Shown: positions 53,002 through 64,000, counted from the stretch's first letter. The stretch is 64,000 bases of DNA from Thalassobellus citreus (GCF_044385915.1 NZ_JBISCC010000113.1:12152-76151), one strand, 5' to 3'. Program-made: numbers and translations. Notes: generated from the sequence alone by a model not told the origin.

Positions 53002-53043
53002 TGGTCCCACTTGGGCTCGAACCAAGGACCACCTGATTATGAG
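53002..53043 (-). other. tRNA 3' fragment: anticodon loop CTCATAA (CAT) through acceptor. Putative att direct repeat of the integrative element.
   Basis: Reverse complement CTCATAATCAGGTGGTCCTTGGTTCGAGCCCAAGTGGGACCA. No matching 5' half nearby. Confidence 0.6.
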
Positions 53044-53195
53044 ACGTATTATTTCAGTTTTCATTTAGCTACATTTAGTTTCTTATATTCTCATTATCAG
53101 TTATTTATAAATTTTTGCTTTGTTTTTATTTGCATATGATTTACCTTTAAAGGGCAATTTGTTGTACAGATGTTGTACTGATTTATTCTAAGCCT

Positions 53196-54404
53196 ATGTC
53201 AACCGTAAAAACCGTATTAAGAAAAACAAAACTTGCTGATGGTAGTTATCCCATCTCTTTAAGAGTATCGAAAGATAGGAAATCGAAATATTTTCAAACG
53301 ATATTTAGAGCTTTCCCAATGGAGTGGAATCAAACAACGGGAAGCTTTACCAATAAAAATTCAAATAGTACCCAAAATAACAGGTTACTTCTTAAATTCA
53401 AGGATAGGGCTTTAAAAATTCTTTCGGACTTAGAAATGGAAAAAGGTGATTTCACTTTAAGAGATTTTGAAAATCGTTTTAGAATTGTGTCCAATCCAGT
53501 ACAGCAAAATGTTTTTTATTTTTGGGATGAGATTATTGGTGAAATGATTTATGCAGGAAGAACCGGCAATGCACGCGTTAATAAAGAAGTGTTCGCTTCT
53601 TTAAATTTATTTCATAAAAGCACTAGACTTAACTTTAAAGACATCACCCCTTCCTTTTTAAATAAATATGAAGCTTTCTTAAGGTCAAGAGGCGGAAGCG
53701 ATGGAGGCATAGGTGTGCGAATGAGAACCATAAGAGCACTATATAACTTTGCTATTGAAAGAAAAATAGCTAAAGAACAGGACTATCCCTTTAAAATTTA
53801 TAAGGTATCAAAACTAAAAGGCAAAAACCTTAAAAAGGCTTTAAGAATGGAAGAAGTCCTTAAGATTAGAGATTTTGATTTAGTAAAATATCCATGGTAT
53901 GTCAATACTAGAAACTATTTTATATTTAGTTTTTACACCAGAGGCATGAATTTTGCCGATATGATGAAACTTGAATGGAAGGCAATTGACAATGATAAGA
54001 TATATTATACAAGATCTAAAACTAAGGGGAATTTTAAAATTAAAATTCTACCCCCTGTCCGAGAGATTTTAAATTATTATAAAGAGTTTGCCATTGATAC
54101 TAAATATGTTTTCCCTATTCTTTTGAAAAATAACTTGACCCCTCCACAATTGGAAAACAGAAAACATAAAACTCTTCAACGCTATAACAAAGAATTAAAA
54201 GAGATTGCAGAAATATGCGGAATTGATAAACCCCTAACAAGTTATGTAGCCAGACATAGTTTTGCAAACTGTTTAAAACAAAAAGGAGTCGCTACCGATA
54301 TTATTAGTGAGTCCATGGGGCATCAAAATCTTAGTATCACACAAACTTATCTCAAGGAATTTGATAATTCTGTTTTAGATGAGGCGATTGAAATTTTGGT
54401 TTGA
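53196..54404 (+). CDS. Tyrosine-type site-specific integrase
   Basis: ARHSFAN..GHQNLSITQTYL catalytic R-H-R-Y blocks. Confidence 0.85.
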   Translation: MSTVKTVLRKTKLADGSYPISLRVSKDRKSKYFQTIFRAFPMEWNQTTGSFTNKNSNSTQNNRLLLKFKDRALKILSDLEMEKGDFTLRDFENRFRIVSNPVQQNVFYFWDEIIGEMIYAGRTGNARVNKEVFASLNLFHKSTRLNFKDITPSFLNKYEAFLRSRGGSDGGIGVRMRTIRALYNFAIERKIAKEQDYPFKIYKVSKLKGKNLKKALRMEEVLKIRDFDLVKYPWYVNTRNYFIFSFYTRGMNFADMMKLEWKAIDNDKIYYTRSKTKGNFKIKILPPVREILNYYKEFAIDTKYVFPILLKNNLTPPQLENRKHKTLQRYNKELKEIAEICGIDKPLTSYVARHSFANCLKQKGVATDIISESMGHQNLSITQTYLKEFDNSVLDEAIEILV

Positions 54405-54540
54405 AGGTAAATTAAATACAGCTGTTCCTAATGGCAATTGATAGATTTCAGTAGTCAAAAAAAAAGTCCTATTTTAACACTAATCTGTTTAGATTTTATA
54501 CCAAACAAACTATTTTTGCTCACTAATTTAAAAAAAATTT

Positions 54541-54717
54541 ATGAAAGAATTAATTGAAAAAATCAACGCAGAAATTGAAACATTCAAAAAAGAATCAGCA
54601 TCATTAATTGAAAATGGAGTAAAAGCTGCTGGGCCAAGAGCACGTAAATCAACTTTAGGACTAGAAAAATTACTAAAAGAATTTAGAAAAGTCTCTATAG
54701 AAGAAGCTAAAAAATAA
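54541..54717 (+). CDS. Small lysine-rich histone H1-like DNA-binding protein (58 aa)
   Basis: MKELIEKINAEIETFKKE..AAGPRARKSTLGLEKLLKEFRK. A terminator hairpin follows (gccctc..gagggcttttttt). Confidence 0.5.
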   Translation: MKELIEKINAEIETFKKESASLIENGVKAAGPRARKSTLGLEKLLKEFRKVSIEEAKK

Positions 54718-62700: not shown

Positions 62701-62808
62701 AACAAGTTTAAAATGCTTTAGTCTGCCCCAAAATGTACACTATCCTCTTTTCATATAATGCCAAATTCAACAAAATTTGCTATTGAGAATAATATTTGGA
62801 AATTGAAT

Positions 62809-63030
62809 TTATGCTTTCTTGGGCAGCTTTATATCTTTACAAACCTCCTTTAATAATTCACTTGGATCTTCATCAATTGCAAGTGCTATTAAGTATAATT
62901 CTTTTACTTTTAATTGTGTGTTTTCATTATTTGAGAGTTCGCTTAATCGCGTTTTACTAAGTCCAGTCTTGCGGGATACATCTGATCTATTTATTGATTT
63001 CTTAGCAAAGTAGAGTCCTAATTTTGTCAT
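62809..63030 (-). CDS. XRE-family HTH transcriptional regulator
   Basis: SRKTGLSKTRLSELSNN HTH. Confidence 0.6.
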   Translation of the reverse strand: MTKLGLYFAKKSINRSDVSRKTGLSKTRLSELSNNENTQLKVKELYLIALAIDEDPSELLKEVCKDIKLPKKA

Positions 63031-63150
63031 GGAATTATCATTTTTTCAGTATATAAAGTTAATATTTAAGATAAAGCTTTCTGGTTTTCTAAACTTTTAT
63101 TTGTTCGTTTATCATATTATGTGTACATTAGTTCCGTTTATGTTAAATAT

Positions 63151-64000
63151 ATGTCTGAATATATAAACTTAAAATTCAATGTAACTATGAATGAAACAAC
63201 TAATTTAGATAGGAAACATATTCTGAATAAACTAAAATCTCTTTTGGAAATTAAATATATCTACGAGACAAGAATAGAAAAAGAAGACTCCATCAAGCCT
63301 ATATTAATTATAATACTAAAAGGAAAATGTAGTTCATTAACCCAAGAATTATCCGCAATGGTTGCTAAAATATTTCAAGAAGAAACAGATTTCTTATATC
63401 GAATATTTTCGTTTGAATATGCCCATCAACAACTAAAAGAAGAAAACCTATTCTTTGTTCATGGCTGTACTTGGAATAAACTAGTATTTCATAATCCTGA
63501 TGATGAATTAGACAGCTTTCATGAACACCATATACCAGAAAAAACACTAAACAACATGCAATCGACTTTCGAAAAAGAATGTCATAAAATGACTGTGTTT
63601 TTGGAGGGCGCGACCTTTTTTATTGAAAACAAGAATCTTTCTCATGCCGCCTATATGCTACACCAACATATAGAATTATGGTTTCGCTTTGTTGCTCTTT
63701 TTATAATGGGCAAGGAACGCAAAAGCCATAGTATTAAAGAGCTACAAACCTATGTAAAAGCATTTGCATCTGAACTAGGAAAACTTTTTAATACACAAAT
63801 AGAAGAGGAGCAAAACCTTTTAAAATTATTAGATGATGCTTATATAACAACACGCTATAAAAACAATTACCATATCAACTTGGAGCAAATCCATAAAATA
63901 TTAGAGAAAGCTCATAAAATGGAAGCATTGGCTACGTCACTATTCAAAAACAAACTGAACACCTGTATTGTTGAAGTATCAAATACTAAAGATATCAAAG
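63151..64000 (+). CDS. Partial ORF (at least 283 aa, runs off window) with HEPN-like Rx5H motif
   Basis: Translation MSEYINLKFN... with RYKNNYH near residue 245. Divergent from the HTH gene. Confidence 0.3.
   Translation, partial: MSEYINLKFNVTMNETTNLDRKHILNKLKSLLEIKYIYETRIEKEDSIKPILIIILKGKCSSLTQELSAMVAKIFQEETDFLYRIFSFEYAHQQLKEENLFFVHGCTWNKLVFHNPDDELDSFHEHHIPEKTLNNMQSTFEKECHKMTVFLEGATFFIENKNLSHAAYMLHQHIELWFRFVALFIMGKERKSHSIKELQTYVKAFASELGKLFNTQIEEEQNLLKLLDDAYITTRYKNNYHINLEQIHKILEKAHKMEALATSLFKNKLNTCIVEVSNTKDIK

Follow-up and report, generated by a model that had tools for sequence, protein, structure and literature searches.

An integrase-bearing island with candidate defence cargo at a tRNA(CAT) gene of Thalassobellus citreus

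Results

A tRNA fragment beside a tyrosine integrase gene

We analysed a 64,000-nt stretch of a contig from the draft genome of the marine flavobacterium Thalassobellus citreus strain MEBiC06459 (hereafter the window; all positions are counted from its first nucleotide). In its last 11 kb, the 3' part of a tRNA(CAT) gene adjoins a tyrosine integrase gene, which is followed by a gene for a histone H1-like protein, an AbiE toxin-antitoxin (TA) pair, a CHAT-STAND gene pair, and genes for an XRE-type helix-turn-helix (HTH) protein and a HEPN domain protein. An earlier note, made from the sequence alone, had taken this region for an integrase island inserted at the tRNA gene and carrying defence genes. 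The features of the junction between the chromosomal flank and the putative island are the following.

52961-52987, minus strand: native intrinsic terminator of the tRNA gene (12-bp stem, loop and T run; terminator scan), in the chromosomal flank and outside the island
53002-53043, minus strand: displaced native 3' part of the tRNA(CAT) gene (tRNA positions 32-73), the core of the attR site; exact match to the intact tRNA in relatives
53062-53078, no strand assigned: pair of CATTTAG direct repeats (53062-53068 and 53072-53078), ~20 nt away from the core; candidate sites for integrase binding (read from the sequence)
53160-53178, plus strand: two TGTTGTAC direct repeats (53160 and 53171; 11 nt apart) just upstream of the integrase start, a candidate arm-type site or operator
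53196-54404, plus strand: tyrosine integrase of the Bacteroidota type, 402 aa (Pfam Arm-DNA-bind_5, Phage_int_SAM_5 and Phage_integrase)

Read on the minus strand, positions 53002-53043 are CTCATAATCAGGTGGTCCTTGGTTCGAGCCCAAGTGGGACCA, which comprises the anticodon loop with CAT, the 3' side of the anticodon stem, the variable loop, the T arm, the 3' acceptor strand and the discriminator. This 42-mer occurs once in the window, compared with 0 occurrences expected from shuffled sequences. No tRNA was called at 53002-53043 by ARAGORN. The Rfam tRNA model matched 53002-53046 (minus strand) as a 5'-truncated hit (model positions 28-71 of 71; 19.1 bits) when the search was trimmed to the fragment; an untrimmed search of 12 kb, in which an internally truncated tRNA is not scored, returned only a sub-threshold spurious match. 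The 32-nt 5' half of the tRNA had no match anywhere in the window with 3 mismatches tolerated, nor were further copies of the 3' part found there, and the only two intact tRNA genes of the window are those for tRNA-Ala(GGC) (16448-16522, minus strand) and tRNA-Tyr(GTA) (41357-41440, plus strand).

The earlier description of a 42-nt tRNA 3' fragment that runs from CTCATAA to the acceptor end, with its native terminator and without a 5' half, was thus accurate: the copy is exact, the 12-pair hairpin is followed by a T run, and the 5' half is absent from the window. The same note had the fragment directly preceding the integrase gene. The two are indeed adjacent, but the fragment lies on the minus strand, so that it and the integrase gene (start at 53196, plus strand) are divergent and separated by a spacer of 152 nt.

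The 42-mer was scanned against one genome per species, which yielded at least 120 loci, all or nearly all of them in Flavobacteriia. In 109 of the 120 loci listed, it forms the 3' part of a full 75-nt tRNA(cat) gene called by ARAGORN, in which GGTCCCATAGCTCAGTTGGTTAGAGCACCTGA precedes the 42-mer.

The empty site in relatives

Among the loci listed, the closest relative of the left flank was found in an Algibacter metagenome-assembled genome (MAG; locus L025), which aligns continuously with window positions 49118-53043 at 79.7% identity. The aligned stretch holds a YceD-like gene, pdxA, ribE, a small PID_CTERM gene, the terminator and the tRNA 3' part, and the hairpin behind the intact tRNA of L025 is homologous and near-identical to that at 52961-52987. 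Homology ends at 53043, precisely where the fragment has its 5' edge; there, L025 has the rest of the tRNA and no island. Beyond the tRNA, L025 continues with a glyoxalase-family gene, rbfA, an FtsX-type permease gene and dus. These neighbours are kept beside this tRNA in more than 25 other genomes, and none of the four was found in the window.

L025 and the window are a textbook pair of empty and occupied site. The native tRNA 3' part and its terminator remain on the ribE side, cut off from the 5' half by at least 11 kb of foreign DNA. The earlier note had interpreted the fragment as an att-type remnant of an insertion and had proposed a comparison with relatives lacking the island; the Algibacter locus, with the same ribE flank, a whole tRNA and homology that ends at 53043, supports this interpretation.

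Two observations concern the flank itself. A small open reading frame (ORF) of 75 aa (52464-52691, minus strand) lies between ribE and the tRNA terminator; its homologue in the metagenome locus L122 matches Pfam PID_CTERM, and the gene is kept beside this tRNA in several genera. In an unrelated part of the window, a 54-nt stretch (46577-46629) is 89% identical to L025 positions 6356-6409 and is possibly a small repeated intergenic element.

The identity of the target tRNA

ARAGORN labels the full gene as tRNA-Met. The best E. coli match of the full 74-nt gene, at 79.7% identity over its whole length, is the tRNA-Ile gene beside mug, which is ileX, the gene of the lysidine-modified tRNA-Ile2. 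Its acceptor stem reads G1-G2-U3-C4-C5-C6, with the C4-G69 and C5-G68 pairs that are determinants for TilS in E. coli. Judging from these features, the target is most likely a tRNA-Ile2 (lysidine) gene and not a tRNA-Met gene, which retains the second of the two identities in the earlier designation 'tRNA-Met/Ile(CAT)' and discards the first. Housekeeping genes use AUA often: it accounts for 7 of the 19 Ile codons of ribE and for 11 of the 35 of pdxA. With AUA codons this common, an intact tRNA-Ile2 gene must exist somewhere in the T. citreus genome; it would most simply lie at the far end of the island, where a 3' part brought in by the element would have restored it.

The integrase

All three Pfam domains of the integrase are full length and score above cut-off. 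Searches against PDB sequences matched XerD, XerH and IntI4, and in the alignment with XerD the R-H and G-H boxes and the tyrosine are correctly placed. At the position of the catalytic Arg148 of XerD (Arg I), the protein has an Asn (aa ~247-252, motif TRGMNF). RGMNF is kept in 119 of 120 homologues and is therefore a family trait rather than a sign of decay, and the integrase family appears to have a non-canonical active-site layout. The Asn at Arg I is reminiscent of IntDOT-type enzymes with their non-canonical Arg I. By its sequence, the integrase looks intact and functional. At E<=1e-30 it has 1905 homologues, mostly unnamed, and integrases of 80-95% identity occur in Mariniflexile, Gelidibacter, Cellulophaga and Maribacter as well as in many metagenomes.

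The same junction in other genera and with other tRNA species

Integrases that are 93-96% identical to that of T. citreus adjoin a fragment starting with CTCATAA in Winogradskyella (L054), in Mariniflexile (L121) and on the metagenome contigs L122-125, L134 and L136. The flank on these metagenome contigs is that of ribE, and the one in L121 differs (transketolase/transaldolase). Downstream of the integrase, L054 encodes Hc1 and AbiE proteins with 84-95% amino-acid identity to those of the window, L122 has genes for an SNF2 helicase, an AEP primase, AAA_14, ParE and HipA, and L135 has two AAA_14/DUF4143 genes. The recurrence of the integrase and fragment together, in other genera and metagenomes and with different cargo, supports the insertion at an att site that had been read from the window alone. 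In L054 (34-1199 and 3166-3699), we also noted that the integrase-Hc1-AbiE block is followed by genes for an ECF sigma factor and Cas1-Cas2, which possibly belong to the island.

The closest counterpart of the island as a whole is on the Logan contig L216, which has 91.4% nucleotide identity over window positions 54883-63959 and also includes the 3' end of the integrase gene. L216 lacks only a 475-nt segment with the Hc1 gene and is otherwise collinear from the integrase to the HEPN gene. These identities indicate that both the integrase/att end and the whole integrase-to-HEPN block have spread horizontally in recent times.

We also compared 80 metagenome loci with integrases of 57-96% identity. 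In about 37 of the 80, a tRNA 3' fragment lies ~150-190 nt upstream of the integrase gene on the opposite strand and starts at or just before the anticodon loop. Scans identified no fragment in the remaining loci, many of whose contigs begin too near the integrase gene to show one. The species of the adjacent fragment varies with the branch of the integrase: CAT, Val-TAC, Asp-GTC, Arg-TCT, Asn-GTT and Pro-TGG. The TGTTGTAC pair was present upstream of the integrase gene in 10 of 10 checked relatives showing this region (~58-96% integrase identity), including the tRNA-Asn-targeting L194, and occurred as a pair nowhere else within the islands of those relatives. Repeats related to the CATTTAG pair likewise occupy the same place in relatives. 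Both repeat pairs are candidates for integrase-binding sites or operators.

Short remnants of the integrase 3' end were found inside the islands of L054 (5838-5933), L121 (13114-13200) and L122 (16377-16443), which points to tandem integration followed by deletion, and L201 carries two element types in tandem. A different arrangement was observed in four loci with integrases of 46-49% identity (L102, L041, L048 and L099). There, an intact tRNA with its terminator is followed by a pair of 8-10-nt direct repeats (e.g. GGTTAAACAT twice) and HTH_17, and the integrase gene lies ~2.4 kb downstream in the direction of the tRNA.

We conclude, with a probability of about 80%, that window positions 53044-64000 comprise the integrase end, at least 11 kb long, of an integrative island that inserted site-specifically into a chromosomal tRNA(CAT) gene, most likely that of tRNA-Ile2, of T. 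citreus. According to the mechanism that we propose, the 402-aa integrase would have recombined the chromosomal tRNA gene with an element-borne site that duplicates the tRNA from its anticodon loop through its 3' end, with a crossover inside that loop or immediately 3' of it. Thereby, the 42 nt at the native 3' end and the terminator would have been displaced to their present place beside the integrase gene as attR (53002-53043), and the element-borne copy would have rebuilt a working tRNA at the other end (attL).

The cargo and its cassettes

Seven genes follow the integrase gene.

54541-54717, plus strand: Hc1 histone H1-like protein, 58 aa, optional cargo (Pfam Hc1, E=2.5e-19)
54907-55803, minus strand: AbiEii nucleotidyltransferase toxin (Pfam; PADLOC AbiEii, E=1e-116)
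55796-56617, minus strand: AbiEi antitoxin/regulator, with an 8-nt overlap with the AbiEii gene (Pfam AbiEi_3 and AbiEi_3_N; PADLOC AbiEi, E=2e-86)
56786-58684, plus strand: 632-aa protein with a CHAT (caspase-like protease) domain, leading gene of a two-gene cassette (Pfam CHAT, 32-34 bits)
58699-62700, plus strand: STAND NTPase, 1333 aa, second gene of the cassette (Pfam nSTAND_NTPase5, 37.9 bits, cut-off 34)
62809-63030, minus strand: XRE-type HTH protein, 73 aa, divergent from the HEPN gene (Pfam HTH_26)
63151-64000, plus strand: HEPN domain protein, first 283 of ~387 codons, cut by the window end (Pfam HEPN)

Pfam agrees with every cargo gene named in the earlier note, and what had been called a HEPN-like ORF encodes a true HEPN domain protein. 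The AbiE pair was recognized by both Pfam and PADLOC, with E values of 1e-28 to 1e-116; it probably acts both as an abortive-infection module and as a TA system that stabilizes the island. The CHAT, STAND, XRE and HEPN proteins had no match in searches of PADLOC (2023), NCBIfam and PDB sequences.

The CHAT-STAND pair is kept in L216 (2107-8023) and in Dokdonia (L215, 8092-13990), where it is 83% identical and adjoins a truncated, unrelated integrase. The N-terminus of the STAND protein gave a weak match to Cap4_nuclease below threshold (17.2 bits, cut-off 26.2; E=0.006), and some of the 487 STAND homologues across Bacteroidota carry PF14130, the Cap4 nuclease N-terminus. These matches suggest a Cap4-like nuclease at the N-terminus of the STAND protein. 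CHAT-STAND is a candidate for an uncharacterised defence system in the form of a conserved two-gene cassette, and the two proteins may function as an Avs-like pair of phage sensor and effector.

In relatives, the XRE gene is always paired with the HEPN gene. Relatives of this pair with 85% identity (L126-131) belong to an element whose integrase is a different one (28% identical) and which also carries type I restriction-modification (RM), Fic, a relaxase, NikA-like and VapE-like proteins, a Toprim primase and three HTH_17 genes. Together with a small ORF, the pair occurs there and also beside yet another integrase in Mariniflexile (L132), and XRE-HEPN was found within 10 kb in none of the 80 metagenome loci with relatives of the T. 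citreus integrase. XRE-HEPN would be a regulated RNase-type toxin or a defence cassette. As a separate observation, the end of the mobilizable element of L126-L131 has GGTGTAAAAAT repeats.

Both CHAT-STAND and XRE-HEPN occur in contexts other than a tRNA, which makes the island a mosaic instead of a single, fixed unit. It consists of exchangeable cassettes: AbiE next to the integrase, CHAT-STAND, XRE-HEPN with or without a small ORF, and the optional Hc1 gene, whose 475-nt segment is present in L054 and absent from L216.

A further step would be to regard the region as a composite, in which an integrase-AbiE core acquired independent cassettes or whole elements by tandem integration and deletion, so that the true unit of mobility is smaller or larger than what we call the island. 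We consider this a serious possibility, at somewhat below even odds. It would account for CHAT-STAND standing as a two-gene cassette in Dokdonia, for the company that XRE-HEPN keeps in L126-131 and L132 and its absence near the integrases of the 80 loci, and for the Hc1 segment as an insertion or deletion between the window and L216. The integrase remnants of L054, L121 and L122 and the tandem array of L201 argue for accretion, and integrated elements are documented to accumulate in tandem at tRNA sites (PMC5704250). However, the collinearity of the integrase-to-HEPN block with L216 at 91% indicates that the block moved recently, or was inherited, as one piece, and neither an internal att-like copy nor an integrase remnant was found in window positions 53044-64000.

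The window end and the far end of the island

The ORF truncated at the window end (283 codons) is 100% identical to P0121, a protein of 283 aa annotated by NCBI as 'HEPN domain-containing protein, partial [Thalassobellus citreus]' on a contig of 76,151 nt. A second HEPN copy in this genome, 95% identical, is cut at precisely that residue by the end of a 285,484-nt contig. Three further contigs of T. citreus, all tiny (331, 440 and 2136 nt), begin within the HEPN gene and hold its 3' end in two sequence variants. Two contigs ending at one HEPN residue, together with these tiny contigs, indicate that the assembly graph was broken by a repeat, and the source contig almost certainly ends at window position 64000, inside the HEPN gene. 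Alignment with full-length relatives confirmed that the gene is cut there. The island therefore continues past the window end, as had been claimed before. The HEPN gene is multi-copy in the source genome, and two copies each are also present in Mariniflexile, Yeosuana, Galbibacter and Zhouia (proteins P0121, P0122 and P0241-P0248 for these genomes together).

Several observations weigh against a site-specific integrative island. The second att copy and the intact tRNA, which the earlier note predicted beyond position 64000, are not seen in the window, which ends with its contig inside the HEPN gene. Related loci that reach up to 10 kb past the integrase, from the 80 metagenome loci and from the protein look-up, never show both att copies. 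L216 continues for 4.2 kb past the equivalent of the window end with the 3' end of the HEPN gene, a 107-aa ORF and then a convergent gene for an S8 peptidase with a type IX secretion system (T9SS) sorting domain, and has no tRNA-like sequence there. The island of L135 (94% integrase identity) appears to extend only ~4.5 kb from the integrase gene; there, the G+C content (GC) rises from 0.32 to 0.39, metabolic genes come next, and no tRNA is present. Pfam detected neither an excisionase gene (HTH_17 or Xis-like ORF) nor a relaxase gene in the 11 kb of the window, and HTH_17 is present in L100, L102 and the elements of the L126 type. Finally, the lower GC of the island (0.289, compared with 0.318 in the remaining window) speaks for an insertion, but the contrast is small.

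The far ends of L216 and L135, the integrase remnants and the tandem elements of L201 suggest that these islands grow by tandem accretion and deletion and that their far ends are often rearranged. A 'tRNA-Phe' called by ARAGORN in L177 was considered as a far-end tRNA and rejected as a false positive. In a Lishizhenia MAG, one of two contigs (L011 and L017) has a fragment and a distant integrase and the other a full tRNA, and ~100 nt downstream are shared at 94% identity. The two may be the attR and attL ends of one element or reflect strain heterogeneity.

Such far ends would also be expected of a fossil island, inserted as we describe, whose attL has since been rearranged or lost and which persists as an immobile, decaying remnant, with the working tRNA-Ile2 gene elsewhere and unlinked. 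The islands of L135 and L159, which end ~4.5 kb from the integrase gene at what is apparently an insertion sequence (IS)-like remnant, with a GC jump and no tRNA, fit this explanation, as do the S8 peptidase gene in place of a tRNA in L216, the fragments of L023, L020 and L037 that have no adjoining integrase of this family, and the integrase 3'-end remnants within relatives' islands. We nevertheless judge it unlikely for the T. citreus island. Its integrase ORF is full length, with the motifs and the upstream repeats conserved, and identities of 91% for the island in another organism and of 93-96% for the integrase across genera indicate recent transfer. The island that we favour, inserted site-specifically and rebuilt at attL, may still be mobile at present.

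The sequenced part could also be the cargo end of an NBU-like integrative mobilizable element (IME), with genes for a relaxase, a primase and an excisionase past the end of the contig. In more distant relatives within the family (58-67% integrase identity; L166, L194, L152, L164, L149 and L160), DUF6730-relaxase-NikA-primase-VapE-HTH_17 genes do lie 2-6 kb downstream of the integrase gene in matching orientation, which makes the integrase lineage as a whole IME-like. The 85%-identical HEPN relatives likewise precede a relaxase-primase backbone, and Bacteroidota IMEs in tRNA 3' ends are well known (PMC5704250). We had considered from L126-131 that the HEPN gene might mark the start of a conserved relaxase/primase backbone and gave this less weight, given that L132 has the cassette in another context and that no such genes follow the HEPN gene in L216, the closest relative. 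The same genes are missing within 5-10 kb in the closest integrase relatives (L121, L122 and L135) and from the 11 kb of the window, and no relaxase gene was found by Pfam in 53044-64000 or in L216. For the T. citreus island itself we therefore regard an NBU-like backbone as doubtful.

A prophage or phage satellite integrated at the tRNA is highly improbable. Phage-like elements may use this tRNA, as 3' fragments of the tRNA(CAT) of the same sequence flank eight IMG/VR 'viral' contigs, but the sole integrase detected in these loci (L224) is only 24% identical, and no capsid, terminase, portal, tail or phage replication gene was found by Pfam in the 11 kb, nor in L216 or L122. The eight contigs (L217-L224) contain the 42-mer as a fragment only; on one of them, 86 kb long, it occurs three times in one orientation, a pattern suggestive of a tandem array at this tRNA. 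Although tRNA pseudogenes exist, a chance similarity or a decaying pseudogene unrelated to the integrase is refuted by the identity of 42/42 against 0 expected, by the empty site in relatives and by a boundary that, across dozens of loci and six tRNA species, invariably coincides with the anticodon loop and keeps a constant spacing to the integrase.

Discussion

Comparison with known integrative elements

The integration of mobile elements into tRNA genes is well described for Bacteroidota IMEs, such as NBU1 (tRNA-Leu), NBU2 (tRNA-Ser), Tn6031 (tRNA-Pro) and MTnPi4 (tRNA-Leu); by inserting into the tRNA 3' part they create a direct repeat through which the gene stays intact, TA and accessory genes are carried as cargo, and elements accrete in tandem (PMC5704250). 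The T. citreus island resembles these elements in its single Bacteroidota-type tyrosine integrase at the edge, in the use of a tRNA 3' part and in its TA cargo, and distant relatives have a MobP-type relaxase, a NikA-like protein and a primase. In contrast to them, no relaxase, oriT or excisionase is visible in its 11 kb or in L216, the host is a marine flavobacterium, and the cargo is of the defence type instead of antibiotic resistance. The repeat also differs from that of NBU1, being 42 nt long from the anticodon loop. The NBU1 core at the tRNA 3' end is short (~14 bp). The integrase itself is similar to IntDOT/IntN1-type enzymes in having arm-binding, SAM-like and catalytic domains (the three Pfam domains) and a non-canonical residue at Arg I, here an Asn.

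K. P. Williams (2002) reportedly described an anticodon-loop class of tRNA integration sites, which is said to be used by many tyrosine integrases of phages and islands and in which an integrase subfamily keeps the sublocation within the gene while switching tRNA species. The present family conforms to this class, with a duplicated segment from the anticodon loop to the tRNA 3' end and a sublocation kept across six tRNA species. It departs from the textbook arrangement, in which the integrase gene is beside the intact tRNA: here it is beside the displaced fragment, on the attR side, and divergent from it. The textbook layout is found in L102, L041, L048 and L099. Specific to the present case are the host clade, the likely tRNA-Ile2 target, this position of the integrase gene and the particular cargo.

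Comparison with known defence systems

Integrase-associated defence islands and hotspots, for example P4-like ones, carry variable anti-phage cargo. The same organization, a conserved integrase and att end followed by variable cassettes, is seen in the window and its relatives, where the cassettes include AbiE, SNF2/AEP, ParE, HipA, type I RM and possibly Cas1-Cas2. Unlike P4-like islands, however, the T. citreus island has no satellite or phage-derived genes, and it differs in integrase lineage and host phylum.

The adjacent, overlapping AbiEi and AbiEii genes, with their strong Pfam and PADLOC matches, would be an ordinary type IV TA/abortive infection system in which nothing is notably different. 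The CHAT-STAND cassette is comparable to Avs/AVAST systems in its large nSTAND_NTPase5 protein with a long C-terminal region and a possible N-terminal Cap4-like nuclease, in its co-transcribed partner from a protease family and in its location on a mobile island. In contrast to Avs/AVAST, neither a PADLOC (2023) model nor a solved structure was matched, the nuclease call is below threshold, and the CHAT partner is a separate gene.

Implications

A broader view of these loci, which we put forward as tentative and rather less probable than not, is that of a lineage of marine Flavobacteriaceae integrases that has been retargeted among at least six tRNA species while retaining a fixed layout, namely a displaced 3' part, two repeat pairs and a divergent integrase gene. 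This lineage may shuttle swappable defence cassettes. Two of them would be uncharacterised and absent from current defence catalogues: CHAT and STAND, the latter maybe with a Cap4-like nuclease, and XRE-HEPN with its small ORF, which is multi-copy in single genomes.

The locus provides a clean insertion scar, with its empty-site counterpart, for a widespread integrase family that shapes genome plasticity in marine Flavobacteriaceae, and the target is, most likely, the single essential gene for the AUA-decoding tRNA-Ile2. No concept is changed by it, as tRNA-targeted islands with defence cargo are textbook knowledge. It is of value chiefly for its uncharacterised cassettes and because the integrase family can mark variable defence loci in Flavobacteriaceae: a conserved integrase end with changing cargo beside it offers a practical way to search the phylum for new anti-phage systems, for which CHAT-STAND and XRE-HEPN are candidates.

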